From a phage: 64,000 nt of DNA. Both the position numbers and the translations under genes were made by a program. The stretch's first letter is position 1. Each line of letters begins with the position of its first letter. The DNA is taken from the NCBI GenBank assembly GCA_012549035.1, contig GCA_012549035.1_4805.1; one strand, written 5' to 3'. The notes beneath the pieces were generated by a model. The model did not search any database, was not told where the DNA came from, and saw only the letters and a program-made list of their open reading frames with translations. Below are positions 4,948-62,497 of this stretch, one piece after another.

Positions 4948-4951
4948 ATTA

Positions 4952-7132
4952 TCACCACTTCAAAGGTGTAGCAGTAAGGTTGTTTATGTCGTTGATATCA
5001 TCTTGTTCAAGCACCCGTTTCGTTTCGAATGCCGTGCTGCGTGGGTCTTGAGCGCCGTTGACGTTGATGACAACGTTTTTCTGACCCATAGTAATATCAC
5101 GCCCACCAGGTCGACTATTCGCGGAAAGGTCGCCGCCATATTTCTGGAATGCTTCAAGCTGGAATGCAGCAAGACGAGCGTTTTTCATCGCTTCGGCTTG
5201 AATGTTCGGTCTTACACCTGGAGTTGAAGCCAGTTGCATGTTTTTAATATAATCCCTTTGCGTGCCAAGCTTAAGGTAAGTTTGAGCAAAGTCAATATCA
5301 CCTTTGTTGACTTGTCCCTGCATCAACTGCTCAACTGGTACGTTCAGGTATCCTGCAATGGCTTCTTGCAATTGCCTGTATTGCACCGTTTGGCGCGATT
5401 GGCCTTGTACTGGTGCATAGCTGCCCTTTGGCGCTTCCGCTCCGCTACCGCTAAGTACTGGAGTAACTGGTGCACCTTGCGGCGCTGCCGTGGCATACTC
5501 ACCATTGGATTGTCGGTCGAGAGCGGCCATGACCTTTCCAGGATAAGCGCGTGTATTCTTGCCCCAGCCGCTGCGGTCGTAGCCACCGTGATACATCGTC
5601 AGCGCAAGATTCCAATCGCCGTTGGCAGCGTTTAAATACTCTTTCAACAGTTGAGCGCCGCCCATAATGTTTTGTCGAGGATCATTGCCATCGGTTATTC
5701 CAAGACCCTTGAAGTTAGAAGGCATTATTTGCATCAAACCAGTCGCGCCTGCTCCGCTCACAGCATTTGGATTGAATCCAGATTCAACTTCAGTCACGGC
5801 CTTCATCATCGCCACAGGTATGCCATAGCGTTTTGAAGCTTCCTCATATATTGAGTCATACGCTGTCGGGTTTCCTGACCCAAGATTATTCCCTATGGTC
5901 GCGCCAGTATTCAATGCAGGCGTTCCAGGCATCGCGGATTGCCCTGCGCTGCGCCCAATTTCACCTGCCCATGCCGCCCAAGCTTGACGCTCATCAATCA
6001 CGCCAGCAAAAGTTGACACGGCGCTTGAAAAAAGATTTATATCACGAGTGAAAAGCGCCTGTGCAGAACGTTGTTCAGCAGCGTTCTGCTCTTGATTCCT
6101 CTGGCGTTTCACATCGCCGTCTGCCATCTGCGTGATCCATCTATCAACGGCACGCTCGTGACGCTCGTTGACAGCGGCCTGCTTGTCGAACGGATGTTTC
6201 AAGTCAGCAATGAAATTGTCGACAAATTCGCTCCATCCGTCAGACATTCTTTGGAACATCATCTGGAATCCTTCGACTGTATCGGCGGTTTTGCTGACAA
6301 GCGTCGAGAATGCAGGCATAACGTTTTCACCGATGACCAGTTCAATACGCCGCCAATCTTCTTGAATTTGCCCCATACTATTTCGTATAGTCTCAAGAGC
6401 AGCTTGCTGTCTTTGCAGCTTCGCGGTTTCTTCGTCACTTATGCGCGTGCTTTCTTTCACAGACTGGTTGCGCTCACGAAGGGCGCGGACTTCATCAGCC
6501 GTGAATCCTGCCAGAGCACCAATGGCACGCGCGGTTTGCTCATTAACACTTCTCAGCTTTGTTCCAATTTCATCAAGCAGCTGATTCGTGTCTTTGATGC
6601 CGCCGTTACTGTTGAAAGGACTTGCCCCCATCTTGTTCAGCAACAAGTTGTCCTTGTTCATCACATCAGGGTTGGTGTATGCATTGAATGCCAAATTAGA
6701 AGCTTTGCTGATTAAATCGCGCGACCCCTGTGCGCCAAGGATGCCCCCTGAACTTTCATTCAACTGTCGTTGTAGTTGTTCGACACCCATTGGAGAGAGT
6801 CCGGCTTCAAAACCAAGCTTTCTTTGCGCTTCGTATTCTTTTCGAACATCAACGATGGATTTGACGACGACGGCCAATCCTGCGACAACAGGAACGAGCG
6901 CGGCAAAACGATATGTCAGCCGCGCAAGGATTCCGTCAATAGACCCCAGTTCAGCTGTGAGAGGCTTCAGCTCACCAAACACATCTTTGAATGCTCCGGT
7001 GAAGTCTTTACCAGCGGCCTTTGCCTTTTTGTTTGTCTGATCAACCTTATCTTGCAATTGCTCAAGACGATTGATGGACTCTTTCAAGTCCACCGTATAT
7101 TGAAGCACAAATTTTTCTAATGAGTCAGACAC
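4952..7132 (-). CDS. Tail tape measure protein with soluble lytic transglycosylase (SLT) domain
   Basis: 726-aa ORF; N-terminal coiled-coil/low-complexity; C-terminal segment AVTEVESGFNPNAVSGAGATGLMQIMPSNF matches SLT family catalytic-Glu motif. Confidence 0.65.
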   Translation of the reverse strand: MSDSLEKFVLQYTVDLKESINRLEQLQDKVDQTNKKAKAAGKDFTGAFKDVFGELKPLTAELGSIDGILARLTYRFAALVPVVAGLAVVVKSIVDVRKEYEAQRKLGFEAGLSPMGVEQLQRQLNESSGGILGAQGSRDLISKASNLAFNAYTNPDVMNKDNLLLNKMGASPFNSNGGIKDTNQLLDEIGTKLRSVNEQTARAIGALAGFTADEVRALRERNQSVKESTRISDEETAKLQRQQAALETIRNSMGQIQEDWRRIELVIGENVMPAFSTLVSKTADTVEGFQMMFQRMSDGWSEFVDNFIADLKHPFDKQAAVNERHERAVDRWITQMADGDVKRQRNQEQNAAEQRSAQALFTRDINLFSSAVSTFAGVIDERQAWAAWAGEIGRSAGQSAMPGTPALNTGATIGNNLGSGNPTAYDSIYEEASKRYGIPVAMMKAVTEVESGFNPNAVSGAGATGLMQIMPSNFKGLGITDGNDPRQNIMGGAQLLKEYLNAANGDWNLALTMYHGGYDRSGWGKNTRAYPGKVMAALDRQSNGEYATAAPQGAPVTPVLSGSGAEAPKGSYAPVQGQSRQTVQYRQLQEAIAGYLNVPVEQLMQGQVNKGDIDFAQTYLKLGTQRDYIKNMQLASTPGVRPNIQAEAMKNARLAAFQLEAFQKYGGDLSANSRPGGRDITMGQKNVVINVNGAQDPRSTAFETKRVLEQDDINDINNLTATPLKW

Positions 7133-7135
7133 AGT

Positions 7136-7552
7136 TTACCCCTTGTTTGGAGTCTCGCCGCTGAGGAATGGCGCGATTAATCGCATCGATTCGCCGATGA
7201 ATGCTGCAGCCATTTCGCCGCCAGCTTGTTCCCAGTAGCCTTCACGCTCGGCGTGAGTATCTGGGTTTATACCGTTCTCCATGAGGACTGCTTCGAAGAC
7301 TTCTTTAAGGTTTTCCCAGTCACCAAGATGGTTGTCAATTAGTGCACCAGTACTTAATGGGATTTCTTGGCCCACATCAAGCTCGACTTTTGCGAAGCTC
7401 AACACTTCCATCGTATACTCTGAACGAAAAGCAGGGTCTTTCGACATTGCAAATTCGACAAAGCGACGCTGAATATTCCAGCCTTCCATCGCAGTCATTT
7501 TGCTGATTTTAATTTCTACTGTACGACCAGTTTGTTTGTTGGTGATCTTCAT
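7136..7552 (-). CDS. Hypothetical protein (possible tail assembly chaperone)
   Basis: 138-aa acidic ORF immediately upstream of tape measure gene. Confidence 0.45.
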   Translation of the reverse strand: MKITNKQTGRTVEIKISKMTAMEGWNIQRRFVEFAMSKDPAFRSEYTMEVLSFAKVELDVGQEIPLSTGALIDNHLGDWENLKEVFEAVLMENGINPDTHAEREGYWEQAGGEMAAAFIGESMRLIAPFLSGETPNKG

Positions 7553-7553
7553 T

Positions 7554-8114
7554 TTATATTCCTACTGTTGATTTTATTTTATTATATAACGAACTCACAG
7601 TTGTAGTCAAACTGACTGGTTCTTTAATAGCAACACCATTTGATGATTCGTCTGCAGATTGTTTAGGGTCGAAGCTTCCTTGAATGCTAAATGACGTTTG
7701 CTCGAAGGTTATTACTATTGAGACTCCATTCAAGTTTTCTTCTGACTGGGTTATTTCAACGTCGGACATCGACATTTTACTGGCAATGATGCTTCGTGAA
7801 GTTATTGAAAATGTGACTTCGTCATCATCAAATGAATTTATGATATTTTCAATTGTAGACTGGTCATTGCAAATTACGTTTAACGCCATATGGGCTGGCA
7901 TTACAACCTTTGTCGCCTGTAAATTGCTTACTGATGACGTGCTTGATACTTCGACAACCTGCATGGCTGTACCAGCAAGAGGGAATTGAGTTGTTTCTGC
8001 TGGGGATGTTATTTCTGCAGAAACAGGTGAAAGCCTTGTCCAGACAGGAAGACCTGTTGACTCATTCGTTATGGTCAAAGATTGACCAGAAAGCAGAATC
8101 GAAACGAAGTCCAT
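7554..8114 (-). CDS. Hypothetical tail protein
   Basis: 186-aa ORF, 1-nt spacing to next gene. Confidence 0.45.
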   Translation of the reverse strand: MDFVSILLSGQSLTITNESTGLPVWTRLSPVSAEITSPAETTQFPLAGTAMQVVEVSSTSSVSNLQATKVVMPAHMALNVICNDQSTIENIINSFDDDEVTFSITSRSIIASKMSMSDVEITQSEENLNGVSIVITFEQTSFSIQGSFDPKQSADESSNGVAIKEPVSLTTTVSSLYNKIKSTVGI

Positions 8115-9769: not shown

Positions 9770-10095
9770 ATTGCAAACTCCGCTTCAGCAGTGGCCTGGA
9801 ATTCAGCCAACTCAGATTCTGACATGTAATATAGATTACAGCCGCCAGAGTTAAACCTTTCATAATCAGGTACGCTGTCGAAAATGAAATTACCGTACCC
9901 AATCATGAGATACTTATAAGGCACCATTGGGATACCACCAAAACAGCGCACCCCTTGAATCAAAAGTTCACCATTGCGATATACGTCGGCACACATATGC
10001 TCGATAGCGGCAAAAATGTGCAACTGCCAATATGCACCGTCAACGTTAAAGCTGATATTCTGGTTAGGTACGCTGTCAAGTGGTATTTGATACAT
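9766..10095 (-). CDS. Hypothetical protein
   Basis: 109-aa ORF, coupled to neighbours. Confidence 0.5.
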   Translation of the reverse strand: MYQIPLDSVPNQNISFNVDGAYWQLHIFAAIEHMCADVYRNGELLIQGVRCFGGIPMVPYKYLMIGYGNFIFDSVPDYERFNSGGCNLYYMSESELAEFQATAEAEFAI

Positions 10096-10562
10096 TATAA
10101 AATCTCTTGGTTGCTCACGCCAGTTTTGACTACGTTCTCAAACTTGAAGCGATATTGACGTGTTTTCACACGACCTTGAGACTGGATGCCAGGAATTACT
10201 GAACCAGTTGTCAAGGTGCCTTTGTTTAGCGTGATAACCATTCCAGAAGGATAAGTCAGCACAAGTGTGATCACGTCTTTTGCGGAGTTCTTGCGCTTGC
10301 CTACGCGGTTTGCAGCTGCAAGAACGTCCAAGTTGACATCACTTTCAGAAGTAGGGATGATGTTCACACCTACTTCAAGCGGGTTTGCACGGTTCCACAC
10401 TACTAAGTCACCGTTAAGGCCCATTGCAGCCTCAGAGATTTGCAGGTCCGGCGCGTCAATCGGATCAGCATCATCTGCAAAATCAGAAAGGGTCACACCA
10501 TTAGGGAAAGTGTTTGATGCTACCAAACGAATCGAAGCGCCAAAACCGGAAACGTTAATCAT
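10095..10562 (-). CDS. Tail tube protein (putative)
   Basis: 155-aa ORF directly downstream of sheath-like gene; paralog of 8647..9144. Confidence 0.45.
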   Translation of the reverse strand: MINVSGFGASIRLVASNTFPNGVTLSDFADDADPIDAPDLQISEAAMGLNGDLVVWNRANPLEVGVNIIPTSESDVNLDVLAAANRVGKRKNSAKDVITLVLTYPSGMVITLNKGTLTTGSVIPGIQSQGRVKTRQYRFKFENVVKTGVSNQEIL

Positions 10563-17856: not shown

Positions 17857-17968
17857 CCACCCTCAAATAAGTATTGTGTATTATATCTAATGAAAAAAAC
17901 TTAGGCAAACAATAATTATGGTTTGAATATGTATAACAACCGATATAGCCGCGCCTTTATTAGTGTGA

Positions 17969-18193
17969 TACGGATGATACGGATAAAATGAGGCGTATTT
18001 TTATCCGTATCGGTGTATAAGCCGCGCTATCACTGGTGTGCTACGGATGATACGGATGATACGGATACTTTTCATATATAAGAGTTTATAAAAAAAAATA
18101 AAATTAAATTATATATATAATTTTAAATTAATTTATTTGAATTCCTATATAGTACGGCGGCAACGCGTATCATCCGTATCATCCGTAAGATTC
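17969..18193. repeat. Iteron cluster R1 (GATACGGAT-type 9-bp units) flanking extreme AT-rich tract
   Basis: GATACGGATGATACGGATA (x2), inverted TATCCGTATC, CTACGGATGATACGGATGATACGGATAC (x3), AT-rich 18075-18150, then 29-bp GCGTATCATCCGTATCATCCGTAAGATTC (18165-18193) identical to 34419-34447. Confidence 0.6.
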
Positions 18194-18273
18194 TTTTGAA
18201 AACAATAACTTACTTGATACGTATGATACGTCATTATACGTATAAAACTCGCGGCAATCCTTTGCCGATGAAT

Positions 18274-18411
18274 TCAGTGGATATTAAATAGCACTCCTGC
18301 AACTAAAACGCCAATCAGCATTGAGTCATAAACAGCCCATTTCCAAGAAAGCAAAGAGTTGCAATTAATATTTCGCACTTTAACATAATGTGACTGAATA
18401 ATCTTTTGCAT
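18274..18411 (-). CDS. Small membrane protein (45 aa)
   Basis: Hand-translated MQKIIQSHYVKVRNINCNSLLSWKWAVYDSMLIGVLVAGVLFNIH; GAGGAAG SD before ATG; hydrophobic C-terminus; below ORF-track size cut-off. Confidence 0.4.
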   Translation of the reverse strand: MQKIIQSHYVKVRNINCNSLLSWKWAVYDSMLIGVLVAGVLFNIH

Positions 18412-18421
18412 AACTTCCTCT

Positions 18422-19342
18422 TTAGTTCAGCTTGATTGCGGTGATCTGTCCGTAAACGGTAGATGTCAATGCCTCTGTGCATTGATAGTTTAGATACACG
18501 TTGCCAGGCGCGGCAAGAGTGATTATCTTTGTTGGAATATTGCCGCCGAAACGACCTGCAGCCCGAATGCCAGCTGACATCGTAAATGCATCATCCGTAA
18601 TATCTGAATCGCTTGTTGACAATTTGGCTGTAATTCCGGTATTCGCTTGAATTCCTGCTGTCGCGACAGTCAACTGACTTGCCGTCACAAGCCACTTTCC
18701 TGCAGGAAGGTTTAAGGTCGCCAGATTAACCAAAGTGGTTGGAGGATTGCTAACACTGTTCGTGGCACTCTGGACGGTGCTTTCCGCTGCGTTAAGCACA
18801 CCGGAACCATCAATTGATAGAGTTGTACCGACCTTTACGCCGCCTAAAGTAGATGCTGACGCAATCGGCAATGAGTATTGAGTAACGCTAATTGTACCGT
18901 CACCTGCGACGCTTATTCCGCTTCCTATTTTGACGCCGCCGAGAACAGAAGCCGTTGCCGCTGGTAACGTGTATTGGTTGCCGCTTGATTTGACCACTTT
19001 AACGGCGACAGCATTCTTTGACCCTCCAGACTCCATTCCTATAATCACTGCTTCTCCAAAAGCGATGGTGATTGTAGATGCAGTTAAACCAGTCTGCACG
19101 TCTGTTATGTTCATTTTGGGAACTGAAAGTGTCAGATTCGGCTTGCTGGTAGAATCGCCATCATTACCGATCATAAAGAATTGACCAACTGAATTGTATC
19201 CAGACGCCAATGGCGGACTCAATGGAACAATCAGGTTTTTATCGGATGTAAATTCTGAAACAATCGCCAAACCGTTAGCATATACAGCAGGCAATACTGG
19301 CGTTTGTCCAGATAGAGGAAACGTGCTGATTGGTATCGTCAT
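18422..19342 (-). CDS. Virion protein with Ig-like/fiber repeats (head fiber or decoration, putative)
   Basis: Repeats LPAATASVLGGVKIGSGISV / LPIASASTLGGVKVGTTLSI; ATG at 19342 with GAGGT SD avoids overlap with MuF-like gene. Confidence 0.5.
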   Translation of the reverse strand: MTIPISTFPLSGQTPVLPAVYANGLAIVSEFTSDKNLIVPLSPPLASGYNSVGQFFMIGNDGDSTSKPNLTLSVPKMNITDVQTGLTASTITIAFGEAVIIGMESGGSKNAVAVKVVKSSGNQYTLPAATASVLGGVKIGSGISVAGDGTISVTQYSLPIASASTLGGVKVGTTLSIDGSGVLNAAESTVQSATNSVSNPPTTLVNLATLNLPAGKWLVTASQLTVATAGIQANTGITAKLSTSDSDITDDAFTMSAGIRAAGRFGGNIPTKIITLAAPGNVYLNYQCTEALTSTVYGQITAIKLN

Positions 19343-19349
19343 AATGACC

Positions 19350-20201
19350 TCAAATGATTGGTATTTTTCTGCACTTGCAGTGTATTGCCCATCCAGGAGG
19401 ACCGATGTCACCCTTTTTGAACTTCAATTCGCCGCCAACTTCCCATAGGCGCTTGTCATCAAGTTTGAATCTCATTCCGTCGACGTGTTCATGAGAGATT
19501 CGCGGCTCCTTTCCTGCTCCTGAGTGCGCCCACTCAAATTCTTCGACTCCATTCTGGCGCATCCTTTCATCGCTTAGAACGCAATACAATTTGCTTGTCT
19601 GGTCTTTAGCGATCAAGTCGACTCTCTTTGCAGAGAAGTGTTTTACGTTTCGCAATGCCGCCTGAATGCCTGACGTGCCTTGCTGGGCTGGGTCGGGAGA
19701 AGTCAGCGAAAGCATGACTGCTTCGTACACTCTGTTGTGAATATCCTCGCCGACCTTAGTCACTAGAGTCGTGTTAAACTTCTCGCTTGTTCTAAGAGTG
19801 TTCTCAACGAATTTGTTATATGTGGCCTTTGGCGCTTCTATGCCTGCGGACTTAAGGCTTGCGAATGTAGCAGAAGTGGCACCCTTTTCGACCGATTTGA
19901 TAAAATCAGCGGCAATCTTCGACCCAACACGTGCAAACGCCTTTGCCCATTTCAGTTGCAGCCGTTTCATAAGGGTCTGGAATGTCGAATCAGCAGAGTC
20001 TTGCGCAAAAAACTTCTGCACCTGCTTCTTGTCAAGCCATTCTGAAATGCCTGCCTGATAGTCATCAATCATCGCATAGCAAAGACCTTTCATCTCACGA
20101 CGATAGGCCATCGCGATTGCGTTGGATGGGATTATCGGACTGCCGCGCCCGACTCTATCGGGTAAGCGGCGTTCACGTTTTTTCGAAGCTTTAAAAGCCA
20201 T
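19350..20201 (-). CDS. Head morphogenesis protein (Mu F / SPP1 gp7-like)
   Basis: C-terminal HVDG...PPGWAIHCKCRKIPII resembles conserved MuF-family motif; directly downstream of portal; ATG at 20201. Confidence 0.6.
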   Translation of the reverse strand: MAFKASKKRERRLPDRVGRGSPIIPSNAIAMAYRREMKGLCYAMIDDYQAGISEWLDKKQVQKFFAQDSADSTFQTLMKRLQLKWAKAFARVGSKIAADFIKSVEKGATSATFASLKSAGIEAPKATYNKFVENTLRTSEKFNTTLVTKVGEDIHNRVYEAVMLSLTSPDPAQQGTSGIQAALRNVKHFSAKRVDLIAKDQTSKLYCVLSDERMRQNGVEEFEWAHSGAGKEPRISHEHVDGMRFKLDDKRLWEVGGELKFKKGDIGPPGWAIHCKCRKIPII

Positions 20202-48493: not shown

Positions 48494-49339
48494 GTGAATA
48501 TGGCCGAAGCAATCAAAGTATTATCTAAAGAAGAAAAACAAGCAGCCGCAGCAGAACGTCGTCGCGTGGCTGAAGAAAAACGCCTGGCTAAAAAGAAAGA
48601 AGCCGAAGAGAAACGCCAGAAGCGTGAGCAGGAAAAACAAGCCAAGCGTGAAGAAGCTGCGCTGAAACGCAAGCAGGCTGCTGATGAGAAGGCTCAGAAG
48701 CGTGCTGAAGAAGCAGCTAAGAAAGCTAAAGAGCGTGCAGAAAAGGCTGCTGCTAAGAAAGCAGAGCGTGAAGCCGCTAAAGCAGCAAAAGAAATCGAAA
48801 AGGCAAAGGCTAAAGAAGAAGCCAAGCGCCTGAAAGCTGAGCAGGCTGCGGCCAAGAAAGCAGAGCGTGATCAAGCCCGTGCTGCAGCGAAGGCCGAAAA
48901 AGAGAAGGCCAAAGAAGAAGCTAAAGCGAAACGCAAGGCAGAGCGTGAAGCTGCTAAGATTGCGGCGAAAGAAGCTGCAGAACAGCAGAAAGAACAGCGT
49001 AAGAAAGAAGCTGAAGAACGTCGCAAAGCCATCGCAGAACGTAAGGCTGCTAAAAAGGCAAACGGTCAGCGTCGTGCAAAAGCCACTCACTTCATCTACA
49101 CTGGCAATGGCCTGAGCCAGCCGCAAGAGCATTCCACTCGTGGACGCGTTCTGGCGGCGATCAAAGAAGGCGAAGTTGGCGTGGCGCAGTCTATCGATGA
49201 GCTGGGCGAAAAAGTTAAAGATCAACTGTTTGGCGCTTCCGTTCGCTCCTACCTGAGCAAGCTGGAAGAGATGGGCCACATCGAGTTTGTCGATGTTGAA
49301 TCCAACGACGATGCTGAAGACGGTGATCAAGCGGAATAA
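48494..49339 (+). CDS. Lys/Ala/Glu-rich low-complexity protein with globular C-terminal domain (histone H1 / TolA-like)
   Basis: About 190 aa of KAKE/AAKK repeats followed by non-repetitive 90-aa C-terminus. Confidence 0.55.
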   Translation: MNMAEAIKVLSKEEKQAAAAERRRVAEEKRLAKKKEAEEKRQKREQEKQAKREEAALKRKQAADEKAQKRAEEAAKKAKERAEKAAAKKAEREAAKAAKEIEKAKAKEEAKRLKAEQAAAKKAERDQARAAAKAEKEKAKEEAKAKRKAEREAAKIAAKEAAEQQKEQRKKEAEERRKAIAERKAAKKANGQRRAKATHFIYTGNGLSQPQEHSTRGRVLAAIKEGEVGVAQSIDELGEKVKDQLFGASVRSYLSKLEEMGHIEFVDVESNDDAEDGDQAE

Positions 49340-49367: not shown

Positions 49368-49394
49368 GACCCACACTTGTTGTGGGTCTTTTTT
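49368..49394 (+). terminator. Intrinsic terminator
   Basis: gacccaca-cttgt-tgtgggtc followed by tttttt. Confidence 0.6.
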
Positions 49395-49473
49395 CGTCTG
49401 TACTAAATAGAAATGACTTGTTGCTGTAAAATAATTTAGCTATTATACTTCTCATATCACCCACAAAGGACAA

Positions 49474-50469
49474 ATGAACATGAAACAACATGTAATGATT
49501 ATCGGCGGCGGTTTGGCAGGACTTATTACCGCGTGTCACTTCCCGAACTCTATTGTGTACGAAGCAGGGGAGCGAGCGCAGCAGCACAAGGCGTTGCTAC
49601 GCTTTCGCGGCGAAGAAGTAAGCCGTATTACCGGAATCCCTTTTAAGGCCGTGACAGTTGACAAGGCTGTGTATTTTCGCGGCAACTACTACCACGACCA
49701 TTGCCCAATCAACCTTGCCAATATGTATTCCATGAAGGTCACCAATCAATTCGGTAGCCGCTCAATTATGAAGCTTAAAACTGCAACGCGTTATATTGCG
49801 CCTGATGACTTTTATGATCAGCTTGTCGACAAACTGGGTGACCGCATATTCTTTAACACTCCTGTTGATACGCTTTGCGGCTATAGCGAGACGCCAATCA
49901 TCAACACGTCGCCGCTGCCAGTCATGATGAAGCTTGCTGGGATTGATCAAAAGATTGATTTCTCATTCGATAAGGCGAACATTCGTGTTTACCGCTTTAA
50001 GATTAAACGCAAGTGTGAACTGTATCAAACCATTTACTTCCCTGACTACTCCGTCAGAACTTACCGCGCATCAATCACTGGCGACACATTGATCATCGAA
50101 ACAATTCCTTTGGTTAGCGTAAGTGAAGCTGCAGTTGAAGCCGCTGGCGGCATTACTCGTTACCGTGACATTAAGTTGCGTGCAGAAGTTGACGAAGTGT
50201 TGACAGCCTTTGGCCTCTCATGGAGTGACATTACTCTTGAAGAAGTTGAAAAGGTCGACCAGAAATATGGCAAGATTGTCGACATTCCGAAGGACTTGCG
50301 ACACGCCCTACTCCTGCAGCTGACTATGGATTTGAACGTGTTTAGTGTCGGTCGATTTGCTACCTGGCGCAACATTTTGCTTGATGATGTCGCTCATGAC
50401 CTTGTTGAAGTTGAAAAACTCATCAAAGCAAATAACTATCAAAAATTTGCTTATATTGCTAATAAATAA
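49474..50469 (+). CDS. FAD/NAD(P)-binding oxidoreductase (putative)
   Basis: N-terminal Rossmann dinucleotide motif MIIGGGLAGL; 331 aa. Confidence 0.5.
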   Translation: MNMKQHVMIIGGGLAGLITACHFPNSIVYEAGERAQQHKALLRFRGEEVSRITGIPFKAVTVDKAVYFRGNYYHDHCPINLANMYSMKVTNQFGSRSIMKLKTATRYIAPDDFYDQLVDKLGDRIFFNTPVDTLCGYSETPIINTSPLPVMMKLAGIDQKIDFSFDKANIRVYRFKIKRKCELYQTIYFPDYSVRTYRASITGDTLIIETIPLVSVSEAAVEAAGGITRYRDIKLRAEVDEVLTAFGLSWSDITLEEVEKVDQKYGKIVDIPKDLRHALLLQLTMDLNVFSVGRFATWRNILLDDVAHDLVEVEKLIKANNYQKFAYIANK

Positions 50470-50477
50470 TTTGCTTT

Positions 50478-50514
50478 CTGCTTCAATGGGCGTATACTTT
50501 AATCATTGAAGCAG
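50478..50514. repeat. 11-bp perfect inverted repeat (ctgcttcaatg / cattgaagcag)
   Basis: 15-nt loop, no T-run; between FAD gene and secreted-protein gene. Confidence 0.5.
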
Positions 50515-50534
50515 AACTCATAGAGGAAACGAAA

Positions 50535-50981
50535 ATGAAACGAATCACTGGAATCGCGCTTGCCGCAACCGCTATTCTCGGCACCATGTATATGGAAGCT
50601 ACTGAAGCGGCTGTCCGCACTTCCGATTCAGTAGCTGTGTATGATTGCGAAGCGATGGACGGTAAAACCGCAGCAGCCACTGGCGCAACTATCACGGCTT
50701 ACATCGGCGTGAACGAGCAAGAAGGTCTGAATATTCAGATTCAAGGATTCACAGGCAAAGGTGCCAACCGCACTCCTTGGATGCAACGTTTCACTTTCGT
50801 TCAGCCTCGTTCAACTGGCGGCTTTATCAACCTGATTGGTGAAAATCGTTCTGGTGCAGAAATCTTTACATCAATGAGTTCTAATAATGAACCAAAGAAA
50901 AGTTTTCAGTTGCTTTATAACGCACAATTCGTTTATCATTGCACCTTCTCTGGTGATCAGCAACTAGTAAATTACCGTTAA
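50535..50981 (+). CDS. Secreted hypothetical protein (signal peptide)
   Basis: N-terminal MKRITGIALAATAILGTMYMEATEAA; 148 aa. Confidence 0.5.
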   Translation: MKRITGIALAATAILGTMYMEATEAAVRTSDSVAVYDCEAMDGKTAAATGATITAYIGVNEQEGLNIQIQGFTGKGANRTPWMQRFTFVQPRSTGGFINLIGENRSGAEIFTSMSSNNEPKKSFQLLYNAQFVYHCTFSGDQQLVNYR

Positions 50982-50994
50982 TAGGATAATTAAA

Positions 50995-51804
50995 ATGAAA
51001 GTTGAATTAATTCGATACACCCAAGATGCACTTGACCTTTTGCTGGAAACAAAGAACACGCGCATGACTGGTAAGCCTGTCTCTGAGATGACGGAATCAG
51101 AGAAGCAAGAGCATTGGCGCTACATGCTTGACACCATCAAGTCGCCTTTTGACTTTGTGGACTATATCTTTGACATCACCGCTGTATCAAAGAATATGAC
51201 TCATCAGATGGTACGCACACGCACAGGTGCATATCAAGAACGCACCAGCCGCGCTCAGGAATCTTCTGCATTTGATGCGATTCGTCCGAAGGCATTCGAG
51301 CACCCTTCTGACTGCAATGATGAAAATGCATTTGATGATGTGCACATAAGACATCACTCATTGGCAGAGAAATGGGATGATGCAATGGCGACTATCGATG
51401 CTTTGTATCAAGAACTTCGCGCGGCTGGCGCAGAGATTCAAGATGCACGTGCCGTGTTGCCTTCTAATATGCAAACGCATATCATGGCAAAGTTCAACTT
51501 GCGCACCCTGCAACAAATGGCTTCCAACCGCTTGTGTACGCGCACCCAAGGCGAGTATCAGGAAGTTTTCCGTGCGATGGTAGCGGAAGTCCTCAAGGTG
51601 CACCCGTGGGCTAATCCTTTACTACAGCCGCAATGCATCGGTATGGGCAAGTGCGCATTCCCTCGCCATGGCAAGGCCCATTGCCCTTGGTATCGTGATT
51701 GGATGGATACCACTGCACAGCAAGAAGAGTTGCGCATCCAGTTTTGGGATGCCGCGCCAATCACCAATAATCCAGTTGCTAAAGATGGAGTATCAAAAGG
51801 ATGA
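50995..51804 (+). CDS. ThyX-like (flavin-dependent thymidylate synthase family) protein, divergent
   Basis: ThyX-like pattern (MKVELI.., SPFDF, HQMVRTRTGAYQERTSR, ARAVLP) but canonical RHR-x7-S reads RTR-x7-TS; C-terminal CIGMGKCAFPRHGKAHCPW Cys cluster. Confidence 0.4.
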   Translation: MKVELIRYTQDALDLLLETKNTRMTGKPVSEMTESEKQEHWRYMLDTIKSPFDFVDYIFDITAVSKNMTHQMVRTRTGAYQERTSRAQESSAFDAIRPKAFEHPSDCNDENAFDDVHIRHHSLAEKWDDAMATIDALYQELRAAGAEIQDARAVLPSNMQTHIMAKFNLRTLQQMASNRLCTRTQGEYQEVFRAMVAEVLKVHPWANPLLQPQCIGMGKCAFPRHGKAHCPWYRDWMDTTAQQEELRIQFWDAAPITNNPVAKDGVSKG

Positions 51805-52673
51805 GCATTAAAAACAGCGAAATCTTAAACGTATTCGACCTTGACGGAACGCTGTTTGATGACCGTTGGCGCTTAGACCGCATCAAGGTGGCAGGTCCGT
51901 TGTCAGACTATGATGACTATCACAGCGGTATTGGTTATGATCAGTTCTATCCTCACATTGCATCAGCAGTAGAGTCGGCATCTCTTCGCGGTGAGGCGGT
52001 TGAATATTGGACTGCAAGGCCAGAAAAATACAGACAAGTGACTTTTGAACGTCTGGACAATGTTTTCCCTTTTGATGAATTTACAATCAAGATGAGAGAC
52101 TATGGCGACAAACGTCCATCAACTATTATGAAATCTGCATGGCTATCGCACGCTTTGCGGCACGGCGATTATCGAATCATCAATGTATTCGACGACCGAC
52201 AAGACGTACTCGCGCGGATGCAAGATGAAGCATTGTATTATAACTCCGTTGCTCAAAATAAAATCGCTTTTACATTTAATCTTTGCAAAGCAGGTGAAGT
52301 GGTGCAACAATTAGCAATTGATCCAAGCGCAACAGGGCAAGAAGAGACTAAGGCTGTGGAAGTTGAACAATCTCCGGCAACTGCCGCCGATATTCTTGAT
52401 GCGATGGCCGCGACCTTCCGTGAGCGCAATGCCGTTTATGGCGATAACGCTGTGATGGTAGGTCAGGTTATGCAGGTGTTGTTCCCTAATGGCGTAACTT
52501 TGAAGACACCGGAAGACTACCACATGTGGCATCTGTTCGAGCTTAAGATTGTCAAGCTTACACGCTTCGCAATCAGCGGCCTGAAGCACGAAGACTCAAT
52601 ACGCGACGATGGTGTTTATAGCGCCATGTGTGAACGTCTTGTAAACACCCATAATATTAATTTCAATAAATAG
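51801..52673 (+). CDS. HAD-superfamily phosphatase-like protein with unknown C-terminal domain
   Basis: HAD motif I FDLDGTL near N-terminus, later VFDDRQDV; 290 aa. Confidence 0.45.
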   Translation: MSIKNSEILNVFDLDGTLFDDRWRLDRIKVAGPLSDYDDYHSGIGYDQFYPHIASAVESASLRGEAVEYWTARPEKYRQVTFERLDNVFPFDEFTIKMRDYGDKRPSTIMKSAWLSHALRHGDYRIINVFDDRQDVLARMQDEALYYNSVAQNKIAFTFNLCKAGEVVQQLAIDPSATGQEETKAVEVEQSPATAADILDAMAATFRERNAVYGDNAVMVGQVMQVLFPNGVTLKTPEDYHMWHLFELKIVKLTRFAISGLKHEDSIRDDGVYSAMCERLVNTHNINFNK

Positions 52674-52717
52674 TTTACTTGTGCGTTTCGATGAGTTATA
52701 TTTACCTCATCGAAACG
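52674..52717 (+). promoter_or_regulatory. Promoter-like element with 12-bp perfect inverted repeat CGTTTCGATGAG-N10-CTCATCGAAACG
   Basis: TTTACT, 17-nt spacer, TATATT; right half-site CTCATCGAAACGAA recurs at 59538-59550. Confidence 0.45.
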
Positions 52718-52738
52718 AAGTCCAAAAAGGATAAATAA

Positions 52739-53422
52739 ATGAAAAAAGTAATTGTTGTAACAGGTTCCAATTCCGGTCTTGGTAAATCTATTTTTGACAC
52801 CCTTGGCGCTTACGGTCATAACGTGCTTGGCATCGATTCAGCATACGGATATGACGTCCGCGATGCTAAACAGATGAAAGAAATTTTAAGCCCATGTGAT
52901 GTTGAAGGCTTGATCAACTGTGCTGGTGTCAACTCTAACAATTGGTTTGAAGATGTAAACTATGAAGAGTTTAACCGCGTTATGCACACCAACGCATTCT
53001 CTTTCGTTAACACGACTCAGGCTGCGCTGAAAAGTCTTATCGACAACAAAGGCTTTGTGATCAACATCGTTTCCAACGCTGCGCATATTCCTATGACGTC
53101 CAGCTTGTGTTATAATGCATCCAAGGCCGCTGCGCTTATGATCAGCAAGCAGATGGCTCACGAACTTACGCCTAAGTACGGCATCACGGTATTCTCTATT
53201 AGTCCTAACAAGTTGCGCGGCACTGGCATGTCTAAACAGATTGAAGATGCCGTTTGCGCGACTCGCGGCTGGACTCCTGAATACGCTGCTGAATACCAGA
53301 AAAAGGCATTGATGAATGGATTGGAAACTGAGCCGCAAGTAATTGCTGACTTCATTCGCCATATCTTAATTACGGGCGCATGGCGCTTTATGTCTGGCAC
53401 TGATATTCCATTTGGTAAATAA
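52739..53422 (+). CDS. Short-chain dehydrogenase/reductase (SDR)
   Basis: TGSNSGLGKS cofactor motif, NCAG, catalytic YNASK. Confidence 0.7.
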   Translation: MKKVIVVTGSNSGLGKSIFDTLGAYGHNVLGIDSAYGYDVRDAKQMKEILSPCDVEGLINCAGVNSNNWFEDVNYEEFNRVMHTNAFSFVNTTQAALKSLIDNKGFVINIVSNAAHIPMTSSLCYNASKAAALMISKQMAHELTPKYGITVFSISPNKLRGTGMSKQIEDAVCATRGWTPEYAAEYQKKALMNGLETEPQVIADFIRHILITGAWRFMSGTDIPFGK

Positions 53423-53514
53423 CAAACATTTGAAGTTGTCACACCCGCTCCTGAAAAGAAACAGGACGAAGACAACACAGTAATTAATCAATAATATTTA
53501 ATTAAGGAAACAAA

Positions 53515-54066
53515 ATGCCACATTTTAAAATTGAACAAATCGCCCTGTCAATTCCAGATGCTCAGCGCGCACAGGATTTCTTGGCTAAAATCGGCCTGAC
53601 AGAATGGTTCCATGATCATGTTGTTGCTACTGGTCGCGTATTTGAAGCTGATGACTTTAAAGGTCGTCGCGACGATTGCACCAATGAAGCTGACTTGCGC
53701 TTCAACTATCAGGCTGGCAACGGTACTGATGGTGGCGCTGGTAAGCCTCTTGAGCTTGAAATCCTTGACTACACAATGGGCTGCAACTGGATTAACGAAA
53801 ACATCGAATATATCGATGCGCATGACAATCAGGTCAGCCATCTTGGCATGCACGTAACTGCCGCTGAACTTGCTGAATGGCGTAAGTTCTTTAGCGAAGA
53901 AGGCATTCAGGTTGCACAGGAAGTTGTAACTGACTCTCATACCAACCCGAACATTGCTGGTCAACGTCGTTACAACTATGTGATCTTTGATACGCGTGAA
54001 ATCATCGGTGTTGATTTGAAGTTTATCGTGCGCTTGAATCAAGACGGTACTCCGTACACTGTATAA
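53515..54066 (+). CDS. Hypothetical protein (possible VOC/glyoxalase-like)
   Basis: 183-aa ORF; weak His/Glu pattern only; tentative. Confidence 0.4.
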   Translation: MPHFKIEQIALSIPDAQRAQDFLAKIGLTEWFHDHVVATGRVFEADDFKGRRDDCTNEADLRFNYQAGNGTDGGAGKPLELEILDYTMGCNWINENIEYIDAHDNQVSHLGMHVTAAELAEWRKFFSEEGIQVAQEVVTDSHTNPNIAGQRRYNYVIFDTREIIGVDLKFIVRLNQDGTPYTV

Positions 54067-54082
54067 CGAATCGTGAATCTGT

Positions 54083-54107
54083 GGCCGTCCTAATGGGCGG
54101 CCTTTTT
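54083..54107 (+). terminator. Intrinsic terminator
   Basis: ggccgtcc-taat-gggcggcc followed by ttttt. Confidence 0.6.
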
Positions 54108-59563: not shown

Positions 59564-59827
59564 ATGGTACGCATCCTTGAACGTTACAAAAATGAAGCTA
59601 CTGGAGTAATCGCTTTCAAACGTCTTTTGGTCAAAGAAATTGACGGAATGTTCCGCGTTGTTAAAGAGTTTGATTATGGCAACGGTGCTGGGGTGAATAC
59701 CGTTATTATGCCTGGCATCAAGGCATATAAAACCTTAAAAGGCGCTGAGAAGGCTTTGGCGGCTTGGAAACCTGAACGTTATCAAATGACCCGTGTTGAA
59801 GGGCTAATGCAAGAAGGTAAAATATGA
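59564..59827 (+). CDS. Hypothetical protein
   Basis: 87-aa ORF. Confidence 0.5.
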   Translation: MVRILERYKNEATGVIAFKRLLVKEIDGMFRVVKEFDYGNGAGVNTVIMPGIKAYKTLKGAEKALAAWKPERYQMTRVEGLMQEGKI

Positions 59828-60381
59828 GCAATATTAATTGGGAAGATGATTTGCCGCAGGTTGCTCCTGAGAGCATTCAAGAGCGCCTTGCGCGCTTAGT
59901 ATCTGAACTGGCAGAACGCCAAGAAGCTTTGACGGAGCTTGAAGATGAAGCTGATATGCAAAAGCAGCGCATCAGTGAAATCAAAACTGTTCTGCTTCCT
60001 GGCGTTATGGATGAGCTTGGTGTGTCTGAAATCAAGCTTGAGGACAAGACCAAAATCAAGGTCGAGTCAAAGGTGAATGCTTCAATCAAGAAAGAAAACG
60101 AATTAAAAGTTTTCGATTGGCTTGTCAACAACGGTTACGGCGGCTTGATCAAGTCCAGCGTCACGGCTGAGTTCGGTCGCGAAGAAATCGAACAGGCGCA
60201 AGAGATTGTTGCCGCGCTGCGTGAAGATGGTGTTGAAGCCACGTTGAAACAAGGCGTTCACTCTGCTACACTGAAGTCGTTTGTAAAAGAACAGCTGGAA
60301 GCGGGCAATCCAGTTAGTGAAGATATTAGCGTTTTTGAATACAAAGAAGCTAAAATAACCTTGCCTAAAAGCAAAAAGTAA
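59824..60381 (+). CDS. Hypothetical acidic coiled-coil protein
   Basis: 185-aa ORF upstream of SSB-like gene. Confidence 0.5.
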   Translation: MSNINWEDDLPQVAPESIQERLARLVSELAERQEALTELEDEADMQKQRISEIKTVLLPGVMDELGVSEIKLEDKTKIKVESKVNASIKKENELKVFDWLVNNGYGGLIKSSVTAEFGREEIEQAQEIVAALREDGVEATLKQGVHSATLKSFVKEQLEAGNPVSEDISVFEYKEAKITLPKSKK

Positions 60382-60440
60382 TTTAACCTTTATCTTGAAA
60401 TCAGGTTGCCACGAAACTTGATACTATAGGAAAATATCAA

Positions 60441-61301
60441 ATGTCTAAGAAAGAAACTACCGAAGTTGCAGTGAAAAACACCCAGATGTCCGCTATGGCT
60501 GATTTTGTCGACATGACCGATTTTGGCGCTGGTTTTGAAGGTGCCGATGCCGATGCGTATGCCATTCCTTTTATCGTCGTACTGCAGAAGATGTCTCCTA
60601 TGGTCGACGAAGATGATCCAAAACACGTTCCTGGCGCAAAAGCTGGCATGCTTTACAACACCGTTACTGGTGAGTTGTATGACGGCAAGAAAGGCGTGCA
60701 GATCATCCCTTGCGCATTCAAACGCACCTTCATTCTTTGGGGCGGTCGCGAGTCCGACGATAAAGGCTTTAAAGGTGAATTCACCAAAGAGCACGTTGAT
60801 GCAGAAGTCGCGGCAGGCCGCGCTGTTGAGATCAACGGTAAGGTATTCGTGCCGGACGAAAACGGCAAGGTGCACGAGAAGAAATCTCCTTACTACGCAG
60901 ATACACGCAACCACTTCGTAATTCTGTTGAACGAAGAAACTGGTGAATTTGGTAGCGCAATGCTGTCTCTGACTTCTTCCATGATCAAGCCGTCTCGCAT
61001 GCTGATGACCGCTCTGCAGCAGAAGAAAGTTCAGACTCCGCAGGGTCTGAAAACGCCGCCGACCTTTATGAACATCGTTCGCATGGGTACTGCATCCCAG
61101 TCCAAAGACGGCAACACCTGGTCTGTTCTGAAGTTTGAGCTGGAAGGTCTGGTGCAGGACAAAGGCCTGTACGAAGTCGCCAAGGCATTCCACAACGACG
61201 TAGTTGGCGGTAACGTTAACATCGACCGCAGCAAGCAGGAAGAAGCAAGCGGTGCCGCTGGTCCTGTCAATGAAACTCCGACCGACGCAGAAGAGTTTTA
61301 A
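60441..61301 (+). CDS. ssDNA-binding / annealing-like protein (putative) with acidic C-terminal tail
   Basis: 286 aa ending ...ETPTDAEEF, like acidic aromatic-terminated SSB tails; in replication module. Confidence 0.4.
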   Translation: MSKKETTEVAVKNTQMSAMADFVDMTDFGAGFEGADADAYAIPFIVVLQKMSPMVDEDDPKHVPGAKAGMLYNTVTGELYDGKKGVQIIPCAFKRTFILWGGRESDDKGFKGEFTKEHVDAEVAAGRAVEINGKVFVPDENGKVHEKKSPYYADTRNHFVILLNEETGEFGSAMLSLTSSMIKPSRMLMTALQQKKVQTPQGLKTPPTFMNIVRMGTASQSKDGNTWSVLKFELEGLVQDKGLYEVAKAFHNDVVGGNVNIDRSKQEEASGAAGPVNETPTDAEEF

Positions 61302-61358: not shown

Positions 61359-61877
61359 ATGATAGAAAGAATTGTACCGCTCCTGAAGATTCTGGCCCTT
61401 GTTGGCGCGTTTGCCGCTGGATCATACGTTGAAGAACTGCAGCAAACCAACGCATCACTGGCCAAGGATAACCAATATCTGACATCGCTGAATGAGCGTA
61501 AGGACAAGATAAATGCACTCGAAGAGCAAATTGCATCTTTACAGGTTGAATCGGCATCGGCATATGAGAAAGGTCGCCAGGAAGCGCAACTGGTTGCTGA
61601 TGACACTATTGCTCGTTACAAGTCTGGGAATATCAAGCTGCGCGCGCAACTCAGCTGCTCCCGTGAGTTACTCAGGAGTGTGCCCGACTCTGCGACCACT
61701 GGACGCCTCTCTGTCCCAGAAGGAAACTGTGGACTATCAGAAGAGGATGTCAGATTTCTTGTTCAGTTCGCCGCAGAAACAAATCGATTAAAAGAGAAAG
61801 TTAATAGCTTGATTGATACTTATAATCAGGCTAAAATAAAAATCGATCAATTCAATGCATCAAAGGAAAATAAATGA
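61359..61877 (+). CDS. i-spanin (Rz-like)
   Basis: N-terminal TM (IVPLLKILALVGAFAAGSYV) then coiled-coil periplasmic domain. Confidence 0.55.
   Translation: MIERIVPLLKILALVGAFAAGSYVEELQQTNASLAKDNQYLTSLNERKDKINALEEQIASLQVESASAYEKGRQEAQLVADDTIARYKSGNIKLRAQLSCSRELLRSVPDSATTGRLSVPEGNCGLSEEDVRFLVQFAAETNRLKEKVNSLIDTYNQAKIKIDQFNASKENK
61564..61791 (+). CDS. o-spanin (Rz1-like lipoprotein) embedded in +1 frame within Rz-like gene
   Basis: MRKVARKRNWLLMTLLLVTSLGISSCARNSAAPVSY...: basic n-region, hydrophobic core, lipobox-like ISSC, Pro-rich mature part. Confidence 0.5.
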   Translation: MRKVARKRNWLLMTLLLVTSLGISSCARNSAAPVSYSGVCPTLRPLDASLSQKETVDYQKRMSDFLFSSPQKQID

Positions 61878-62497
61878 AACAGATTTATGCAAACATTCGC
61901 CAGTGGGCTTCTGACCGTAACATCATCCAAGGTTGCGACCTTAAGGACCAATACCCGAAGCTTATCAGCGAGTTCGGGGAGTTAACCGACCACGTTGATC
62001 AACTCCATGACCTTGTGTTCTTCGACCCTGAAATTGGATATACAGAGCAAGCCATCTGTGACTTGCAGGCAGCAATTAAGGACGACATCGGCGATTGCCT
62101 TGTTGTGTTGACCATCCTGGCAGCGCAAAACGGTACTGAAATCGAAAACATTAATGGCGGCGGTTGCGCTGATAAAGGTGCTCACCCTCATTCATTTATC
62201 CTTCGCCTGGCAAAGACCCTTGGACGACTTGGTGATGCAATCGCTAAGAATCAGACCATGGATATTGACGTGACCATCATGGCCGCAGCCGATTACCTTT
62301 CCGGCGTAGCTCATGATTATGGCCTTCGCTTATCCGACTGTGCGCAAGCGGCCTACGAAGACATTAAAGACCGAAAAGGTGTCATGTACAACGGCACATT
62401 CATCAAATCGACTGATCCAGCTTATGAGCACTCCTGCAAAATGGTAAAGAAGCTGGAACTTGAAGACCGTGTGATCAGAGAAGTTACAGGACAATAA
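61874..62497 (+). CDS. MazG-like nucleotide pyrophosphohydrolase (putative)
   Basis: 207-aa acidic helical protein with EFGELTDHVDQ and DDIGD segments; tentative. Confidence 0.4.
   Translation: MKQIYANIRQWASDRNIIQGCDLKDQYPKLISEFGELTDHVDQLHDLVFFDPEIGYTEQAICDLQAAIKDDIGDCLVVLTILAAQNGTEIENINGGGCADKGAHPHSFILRLAKTLGRLGDAIAKNQTMDIDVTIMAAADYLSGVAHDYGLRLSDCAQAAYEDIKDRKGVMYNGTFIKSTDPAYEHSCKMVKKLELEDRVIREVTGQ

Follow-up and report, generated by a model that had tools for sequence, protein, structure and literature searches.

What do a flavoprotein, a divergent ThyX-like protein, a phosphatase fusion, a short-chain dehydrogenase/reductase (SDR) and a putative vicinal oxygen chelate (VOC) protein accomplish when their genes lie side by side in the replication module of a phage? 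The question is raised by a block of six plus-strand open reading frames (ORFs), here called g1 to g6 in their order, at positions 49474-54066 (4.6 kb) of a 64,000-nucleotide stretch of phage DNA (GenBank assembly GCA_012549035.1, contig GCA_012549035.1_4805.1). We refer to the whole of this stretch as the window. The 4.6-kb region shares 93-96% DNA identity with 29 Wifcevirus genomes, in which the same genes are annotated; these are E. coli and Shigella myoviruses, including WFC/WFH, ECML-117, SP13 and BASEL Bas98-101. A sequence-only reading of the window had suggested that the block serves a nucleotide modification or salvage pathway, for example through pyrimidine C5 chemistry. Our analysis indicates that Wifcevirus DNA probably carries a protective modification linked to TG dinucleotides. 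The most economical reading of the block, to which we give about even odds, is a nucleotide/DNA-modification operon with g1, g3 and g4 as its core, in which we infer both the chemistry and the sequence-specific step.

Wifceviruses resist restriction without a known mechanism, and the Pbunaviruses are their distant relatives (PMC11990801). DNA of the Pbunavirus F8 resists every tested enzyme that has TG in its site (Yee et al., bioRxiv 2025, PMC12191111). F8 and 14-1 contain new thymidine-derived nucleosides of 362 and 390 Da at TG, which were read as a tetrose sugar-alcohol and a cyclised pentose derivative and which replace about a quarter of T; Pbunavirus is without known modification genes, and no biosynthetic genes were named (PMC12191111). 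Both masses could be composed of 5-hydroxymethyl-dU (5-hmdU, 258) plus tetritol (122) or pentose (150) less water, and 362 Da could also be dT plus tetrose. The literature searched gave nothing on Pbunavirus modification genes.

The g1, g3 and g4 genes recur together in phages

We surveyed 50,697 phage records for g1, the g3 clade and g4. The three show a near-identical pattern, with counts of 292/292/293 in Pseudomonas, 27/27/27 in Escherichia, 9/9/9 in Serratia and 8/10/9 in Rhizobium phages, respectively. The Pbunavirus orthologues, gp65 (g1, 40% identical to the window protein), gp59 (g3, 49%) and gp57 (g4, 32-47%), are syntenic with the window and lie between the Dda helicase and the exonuclease/DnaE genes. 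Counterparts of all three are also found within 6 kb in an unrelated 207-kb Rhizobium phage, RHph_Y65. The Y65 trio consists of a g1 homologue, a variant ThyX with the motif RNR, and a protein with a weak HAD N-terminus (Hydrolase_6, E 0.003, under the Pfam cut-off) and a clear DUF6378 C-terminus.

SDR and VOC genes are found together in Wifcevirus and Myosmarvirus, in Xanthomonas phages (Carpasina, FoX, XcP1) and in Luteibacter, Pantoea, Aeromonas and Erwinia phages. In the Microbacterium phage TinyMiny, gp55-gp59 (positions 4359-7675 of locus L005), beside DnaE, comprise a Rossmann oxidoreductase, a HAD phosphatase, an SDR, a VOC protein and DUF6378. A glycosyltransferase is encoded ~4 kb downstream of this TinyMiny block, and the related phage Potty has an oxidoreductase and a 439-residue variant ThyX at the same position. 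The cluster-D mycobacteriophage Troll4 carries an oxidoreductase, a nucleotidase, an SDR, DnaE and a variant ThyX in one stretch. We rejected homology of g1 to TinyMiny gp55 and Troll4 gp61, since the profile comparison aligned GxGxxG alone and the g1 hidden Markov model gave no match.

Comparison of F8 and 14-1, the two Pbunaviruses with different thymidine adducts, over 30 kb reveals that most proteins are 92-99% identical. The g4 orthologue, at 80% identity (354 vs 338 residues), and its small neighbours (78-82%) are among the most divergent. The most divergent protein of all is gp70 (56%), which the block does not include and for which the window encodes no homologue. F8 gp70 (17894-19090 of locus L010) and its 14-1 counterpart gp71 (17997-19301 of L011) have sub-threshold Pfam matches only, to the DnaJ CxxCxGxG zinc-finger domain (E ~0.01); they are a candidate specificity determinant in these phages.

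g3 is a fixed variant of ThyX

The core gene g3 (50995-51804, +) encodes 269 residues, of which 5-205 match Pfam Thy1 (PF02511, E 1.2e-29), and phmmer matches the protein to the T. maritima and M. tuberculosis ThyX structures. Against the NCBIfam thyX equivalog model TIGR02170 it scores 80.3 bits, under the cut-off of 87.9. We mapped its residues by alignment to T. maritima ThyX, whose numbering is used here for the canonical residues. The mapping confirms the altered signature noted in the sequence-only reading: in place of RHR-x7-S (R78-H79-R80-x7-S88-G89 in T. maritima), g3 has RTR-x7-TS (R74-T75-R76-x7-T84-S85). Retained are Q75 (Q71 in g3), R78 (R74), R80 (R76), E86 (E82), R90 (R86), R147 (R152), N163 (N168), R165 (R170) and R174 (R179), and substituted are H53 (I48), H59 (F54), H79 (T75), N85 (Q81), S88 (T84), G89 (S85), Y91 (A87) and H178 (R183).

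The dUMP-binding arginines, equivalent to R78, R80, R90, R147 and R174, are thus all kept in g3, and they are conserved across its clade; the folate-stacking His53 and the general acid Tyr91 are both absent (Ile48 and Ala87). In ThyX, S88 and Y91 are strictly conserved and critical, Y91 mutants being ~1000-fold slower, and H53 keeps the folate stacked against the flavin and forms hydrogen bonds to Y91 and N85 (PMC11940539). As judged from the alignment, g3 has kept the dUMP site and lost the H53-Y91-N85 triad.

The RTR motif is found in 120 of the 120 closest g3 homologues (identity of 53% or higher; phage contigs of ~60-75 kb). The Cys cluster that had been read at the end of the protein is equally constant in this set: C181, C214, C220 and C230 are invariant, C181 lies two residues past the R174 equivalent, and the other three fall within a 60-residue C-terminal extension. 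Because RTR and the four cysteines are constant in all 120 homologues, we regard g3 as a fixed variant and not as a drifting ThyX. Direct alignment places the proteins of the window, Pbunavirus LMA2, Rhizobium Y65, Mycobacterium Troll4 and Microbacterium Potty in one variant clade, with the motifs T(I/V)..P..(F/A), THQ.VR(T/N/Q)R and (T/S).R(A/V/F), where THQ is clade-specific. Canonical ThyX proteins of Bacillus, Clostridium and Synechococcus phages keep GH.S..EH, RHR and S.RY. The four-Cys pattern is shared by Troll4 gp68 and absent from the Y65 and Potty proteins. We found no paper describing the function of this variant subfamily in the literature searched.

g1 has the fold of a UGM-like flavoprotein

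The second core gene, g1 (49474-50469, +), encodes 331 residues with the N-terminal Rossmann motif IIGGGLAGL and falls in phrog_4828. Beyond the GxGxxG motif it has no match in Pfam, NCBIfam or the Protein Data Bank (PDB) sequences, and its family counts 1917 members. We used AlphaFold2 (AF2) to model the protein from 64 sequences (pLDDT 87). A Foldseek search with this model gave the T. cruzi and Aspergillus UDP-galactopyranose mutases (UGM) as top matches, followed by monoamine oxidases, and the model displays the UGM fold with its FAD-binding Rossmann domain. The protein is outside the UGM sequence family: it has no Pfam GLF match, and its family profile finds no UGM among the PDB sequences. 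On the strength of the model, g1 is best described as a compact flavoprotein of the UGM/PPOX/amine-oxidase superfamily; its closest known structure is UGM, and by sequence it makes up a new family. The earlier description as a Rossmann FAD/NAD protein fits both the motif and the flavoprotein-like fold.

g4 fuses a HAD phosphatase to DUF6378

The third core gene, g4 (51801-52673, +), encodes 290 residues in two domains. The N-terminal 175 residues (51801-52325, +) match Pfam HAD_PNKP (E 5e-8) with the HAD motif DLDGT, and the family profile matches the phosphatase domain of T4 Pnkp (E 1e-7). All four HAD motifs are present, with D13, D15, T71, K111, D131 and D132 invariant, and by fold the domain matches Pnkp1, T4 Pnkp and AphA. 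The C-terminal domain (52383-52640, +), residues 195-280, is a four-helix bundle in the AF2 model (pLDDT >90) and corresponds to DUF6378, which is matched in 33 of 63 g4 homologues. Thus, the HAD-motif protein with an extra domain of the sequence-only reading is a T4-Pnkp-type phosphatase joined to a DUF6378 bundle. The C-terminal half is this bundle, and no P-loop 5'-kinase domain is present. The database label 'polynucleotide kinase/phosphorylase' is therefore misleading, since g4 has DUF6378 fused in place of a kinase.

By eye, from motifs and the Pfam hits of homologues, the C-terminal domain appears to resemble DUF1599, the 'nucleotide modification associated domain 1'. An hhalign comparison of this domain with the MazG-like protein of the window and with a DUF1599-VOC fusion was not significant, and a fold search with the full g4 model returned HAD matches only, none for the helical domain. 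The literature searched yielded nothing on the function of DUF1599 or DUF6378. In TinyMiny gp59 the DUF6378 domain makes up a protein of its own, and in Rhizobium Y65 gp205 it occurs in a different fusion. The g4 orthologue of the Serratia phage MyoSmar, gp35 (18179-19597 of locus L015), is longer (472 vs 290 residues) and has an extra segment between or beside the HAD and DUF6378 domains.

g5 and g6 are accessory genes and g2 is restricted to Wifcevirus

The product of g5 (52739-53422, +; 227 residues) is a classical SDR, as had been read from its YNASK motif. It carries TGSNSGLG at residues 8-15 and YNASK at 125-129 and matches adh_short with E 9e-32. It reaches no NCBIfam subfamily cut-off, and its best matches are generic, for the most part reductases acting on sugars, polyols or acyl groups. 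The possible VOC fold of g6 (53515-54066, +; 183 residues) gains support from its family. By itself g6 gives a weak Glyoxalase_4 match (E 0.004, 17.8 bits vs a cut-off of 27), Glyoxalase_4 matches among its homologues reach E 1e-10, and a profile of the family finds the VOC structure 3gm5 (E 3e-4). We predict that g6 is a VOC-fold (glyoxalase/dioxygenase) protein. The family is small, with 290 representative clusters, and some metagenomic relatives are fusions of DUF1599 to VOC. The spacer between the SDR and VOC genes is 92 bp in the window (53423-53514; compared with 9956-10341 of locus L001), whereas this gap holds two additional small ORFs in Bas98 and a single one in Bas99.

The remaining gene, g2 (50535-50981, +), encodes 148 residues with a signal-peptide-like N-terminus, judged by eye, in keeping with the secreted protein proposed before. 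It has no family match in Pfam, PHROGs or NCBIfam, and its only tblastn matches are in 29 records of Escherichia/Shigella Wifcevirus. It is probably a genus-specific insert outside the pathway.

Sequence signature of TG-linked protection

Among the 6-mer palindromes of the window, 21 occur at under a third of expectation and none of these contains TG/CA. Strong avoidance thus affects 0 of the 16 palindromes with TG and 21 of the 48 without (Fisher p 6e-4). For palindromes with at least four G+C the counts are 0/8 and 17/24. In the T7 control the proportions are equal, at 8/16 with TG and 26/48 without.

The flank test considers sites that start with G, where a 5' T creates a TG overlapping the site, and counts those with the T flank on neither strand. 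Only 2 of the 116 GATC sites in the window are unflanked where 55 are expected (p 1.6e-29); 54 are TGATCA and 60 are flanked on one side. Of the 15 EcoRI sites (GAATTC) one is unflanked (7.1 expected, p 9e-4) and seven are TGAATTCA, and of the four EcoRV sites (GATATC) none is unflanked (1.9 expected, p 0.076). Unflanked GATC is also depleted in MyoSmar (32/180, 90 expected, p 1e-19) and in Pbunavirus LMA2 (166/348, 212 expected, p 4e-7); lambda is at expectation (56/116, 58 expected, p 0.36). EcoP1_I sites in the window, scored on the complement, have the T flank in 24 of 82 cases with 25 expected, and this lack of enrichment matches the sensitivity of the phages to EcoP1_I alone. The T-flank pattern, seen in silico, would be expected if the T of TG carried a bulky group. 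Such a group would account for the in vivo resistance to EcoRI and EcoRV, although their sites contain no TG. As a cheap indicator that needs a genome sequence and nothing else, the T-flank statistic could flag context-specific DNA modification in other phages.

The BclI site TGATCA occurs at 54 vs 25 expected in the window and makes up nearly half of all GATC, which overall is present at ~40% of expectation. All but one of the 72 CCGG sites are in the contexts TCCGGY/RCCGGA (TCCGGT 22, ACCGGA 20, GCCGGA 16, TCCGGC 13). There is a single CCSGG and no TCCGGA, a pattern that stacked avoidance of several restriction specificities with CCGG in their sites could produce. We considered the TCCGGY context as a second T-flank effect and rejected it, as stacked avoidance of CCSGG, RCCGGY and TCCGGA explains it fully.

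Organization and surroundings of the block

All six ORFs were recovered as previously delineated. In the Wifcevirus records, g1 to g6 are labelled in order hypothetical, hypothetical, thymidylate synthase, 'polynucleotide kinase/phosphorylase', 'FabG-like reductase' and hypothetical. The earlier placement of six co-oriented genes between helicase and polymerase is correct, with two further genes intervening. Upstream, a Dda-like helicase is followed by a Lys/Ala/Glu-rich protein, and downstream a proofreading exonuclease precedes the DnaE-type polymerase. An intrinsic-terminator-like hairpin at 49368-49388 (+), GACCCACACTTGTTGTGGGTC then T6, ends the upstream unit, and a second one at 54083-54102 (+), GGCCGTCC-TAAT-GGGCGGCC then T5, forms the right border. 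The corresponding borders carry annotated terminators in Pbunavirus LMA2 (left) and MyoSmar (right). The g3 stop overlaps the g4 start (ATGA). Given the flanking terminators and this overlap, the six genes look like one transcription unit. A weak sigma-70-like promoter match (49408-49435, +; 9 of 12 consensus positions) lies upstream of g1; it is a consensus match only, and such matches in the region do not exceed the shuffled expectation in number. An AAGGA ribosome-binding site precedes g1.

The Lys/Ala/Glu-rich protein immediately 5' of the block (48494-49339, +; 281 residues) is of low complexity and histone-H1-like, and its C-terminal ~87 residues are 53% identical to Pbunavirus gp66. The repetitive composition probably explains a long antisense ORF at 48521-49330, which would then be an artefact. 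Beyond the block, the window encodes at 61874-62497 (+) a MazG-like pyrophosphatase, so named by its database label and without a Pfam match, which is 30% identical to Pbunavirus gp49; such an enzyme could shape dNTP pools for a modification pathway. A pair of proteins resembling Pam3 gp33 (DUF7307) and gp34 is encoded at 59824-61301 (+), 42% and 56% identical to Pbunavirus gp52 and gp51, and belongs to the few other non-replication proteins common to Pbunavirus and the window.

A proposed route to sugar-type thymidine hypermodification

We tentatively propose that a ThyX-derived enzyme without folate-dependent reductive methylation, a UGM-like flavoprotein and the phosphatase-DUF6378 protein together form a new route to sugar-type hypermodification of thymidine at TG, which uses neither a 5-hmdU kinase nor an aGPT-Pplase, is widespread in DnaE-encoding phages including the Pbunaviruses, and is extended in Wifcevirus-like phages by the SDR and VOC proteins, which diversify the adduct. 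In this specific form the proposal is possible and still doubtful. On the broader reading, for which the odds are about even, the product of the block would be a C5-substituted deoxyuridine bearing a sugar or polyol that replaces T next to G and blocks restriction enzymes, a modification of the same kind as that chemically shown in the Pbunaviruses F8 and 14-1.

In such a pathway, g3 would bind a dU nucleotide through the kept arginines and activate C5. Since the folate-stacking His and the Tyr general acid are lost, its endpoint may be altered: it would stop at a reactive 5-methylene or 5-hydroxymethyl handle, or take a different electrophile. The flavoprotein g1 could supply or remodel the sugar moiety by reduced-flavin N5 chemistry on a sugar, as in UGM, whose flavin-N5-sugar adducts are formally analogous to the flavin-N5-methylene of ThyX. 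The phosphatase domain of g4 may dephosphorylate a sugar-phosphate or nucleotide intermediate, and its DUF6378 domain may bind or hydrolyse a nucleotide. As lineage-specific tailoring, g5 would reduce a carbonyl of the appended chain and g6 would isomerise one. The processing of a chain derived from a sugar-phosphate would agree with steps of these three kinds, by phosphatase, reductase and isomerase.

If true, the ThyX scaffold would have been recruited for base hypermodification and a UGM-like flavoenzyme would act in DNA-base chemistry; restriction resistance and END-nuclease sensitivity would be explained, and new enzymes for sugar-decorated DNA would be at hand. Few phages are used more in Pseudomonas therapy than the Pbunaviruses, and the block offers a short list of candidate genes for their modification and for the restriction resistance of Wifcevirus.

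Alternative explanations

Several observations weigh against a modification operon. The SDR and VOC genes are absent from Pbunavirus and therefore cannot belong to the core. The genes may accompany DnaE because a replication module was inherited and not because they share a pathway, and the similarity of g1 to UGM is at the level of the fold only (18% identity, no Pfam GLF match). With its strong Thy1 match and all dUMP-binding arginines, g3 could be a working thymidylate synthase. TG specificity needs an enzyme that acts at the DNA level, by base flipping or base exchange, and the block has no evident candidate; in ThyX the active site is a buried pocket for a nucleotide. In Pbunavirus some three quarters of T remain canonical, which misfits replacement at the level of the nucleotide pool by a g3 product. 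The palindrome test is negative in Pbunavirus, the expected positive control (LMA2 4/15 vs 12/38; F8 and 14-1 not significant), and weak and not significant in MyoSmar. Palindromes with AA/TT are likewise never avoided in the window and those with CC/GG dominate the avoided set, so that composition contributes to this test, although two CC/GG palindromes with TG are nonetheless kept. We gave the flank test the greater weight because it works in Pbunavirus, where the palindrome test failed. The literature searched contained no analysis of Wifcevirus virion DNA, and we infer the link between the block genes and the modified base.

The main rival, which we regard as rather unlikely, is that the block serves ordinary nucleotide supply and repair, with g3 as a divergent thymidylate synthase, g4 as a nucleotidase or as a DNA 3'-phosphatase working with the phage ligase, and g1, g5 and g6 as unrelated auxiliary metabolic genes; protection would then come from other genes or from fast replication. 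It draws on the Thy1 match of g3 (E 1.2e-29) with R78, R80, E86, R90, R147 and R174 kept, and on g3 being the sole annotated thymidylate synthase in the 50 kb of the Bas99 record examined. For the N-terminal domain of g4, the closest counterparts are the T4 Pnkp 3'-phosphatase and AphA nucleotidases, and the phage has a DNA ligase gene in the vicinity. Phage replication modules commonly include a ThyX gene, and in many phage lineages the block lies within such a module beside DnaE. Yet the loss of Y91 and H53 is fixed across the g3 clade and g3 scores under the equivalog cut-off. Supply and repair also leave unexplained why a UGM-like flavoprotein and DUF6378 are tightly linked to the variant ThyX in unrelated phages, and they account for neither the VOC-DUF1599 fusions nor the T-flank signature. 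The salvage pathway that the sequence-only reading had offered beside modification is a live rival as well. We consider it unlikely that TG is modified by other genes common to Pbunavirus, such as the Pam3 gp33/gp34-like pair, the homologues of gp76/gp77 or the MazG-like protein, with the block serving another purpose. Several further uncharacterised proteins are indeed common to Pbunavirus and the window, the highly divergent gp70 lies outside the block without a window homologue, and the block has no recognisable DNA-binding modification enzyme. However, apart from the ligase and the MazG-like protein, only g1, g3 and g4 among the shared proteins have recognisable folds of small-molecule enzymes, the chemistry predicted for them (on uracil C5, sugar and phosphate) fits the reported adducts, and the g4 orthologue is itself among the proteins that diverge most between F8 and 14-1.

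Very improbable, in our view, is a role in cofactor support, in which the flavoprotein and the SDR would regenerate reduced flavin or pterin/folate for a ThyX without its own NAD(P)H/folate site and the product would still be dTMP. Some SDRs are pteridine reductases, which counts for this explanation. NADPH uses the same ThyX site as folate. Mycobacterium and Gordonia phages carry SDR genes together with ThyX-like genes, and the His that stacks folate in canonical ThyX (H53, PMC11940539) is missing in g3. Against it, the fold of g1 is UGM/PPOX/amine-oxidase-like and not that of a flavin reductase, the best matches of g5 are the generic reductases of sugars, polyols or acyl groups described above, and Pbunavirus has the variant ThyX without any SDR; the phosphatase-DUF6378 and VOC components would go unexplained. 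On balance, the earlier suggestion of nucleotide modification by pyrimidine C5 chemistry holds in part. It is favoured by the residue losses in ThyX, the restriction resistance of Wifcevirus, the synteny with Pbunavirus and the TG signature, whereas g2 falls outside the module, the SDR and VOC genes are not core, and a candidate for the TG step is lacking.

Comparison with known systems

With ThyX (PF02511; TIGR02170), g3 shares the Thy1 domain and the equivalents of Gln75, Arg78, Arg80, Glu86, Arg90, Arg147, Asn163, Arg165 and Arg174; it differs in the THQ motif, the 60-residue C-terminal extension, the loss of His53 and Tyr91 and the score below the equivalog cut-off. The N-terminal domain of g4 belongs to the same HAD subfamily as T4 Pnkp and has all of its catalytic motifs, but the kinase domain is replaced by the helical DUF6378 domain. 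Relative to UGM, g1 is ~40-140 residues shorter, and PPOX and amine oxidases score nearly equally.

The phages M6, ViI, PaMx11 and phiW-14 carry thymidine hypermodifications based on 5-hmdU (Lee et al. 2018 and 2021, PMC8989533). The route proposed here would resemble theirs in placing a bulky C5-methyl substituent on some thymidines against nucleases, in combining flavoenzymes with tailoring enzymes, and in passing through an exocyclic 5-methylene intermediate. Their pathways, however, rely on a dUMP hydroxymethylase of the ThyA type, a P-loop 5-hmdU DNA kinase and an aGPT-Pplase amino-acid:DNA transferase, none of which is found among the six block proteins (Pfam, PHROGs, NCBIfam; the rest of the genome was covered by database annotation only), and their adducts derive from amino acids or polyamines, not sugars.

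The Pbunaviruses F8 and 14-1 form the closest comparison. There the modified base was measured by liquid chromatography-mass spectrometry, whereas for Wifcevirus it is predicted from the sequence. Wifcevirus adds the SDR, the VOC protein and g2 and is without gp69-71. The signature in the window is also far more pronounced than in Pbunavirus and includes the sites of EcoRI and EcoRV, two enzymes to which F8 DNA is not resistant. Common to both groups are orthologues of g1, g3 and g4 in the same order, resistance to restriction, and T-flank enrichment at GATC.

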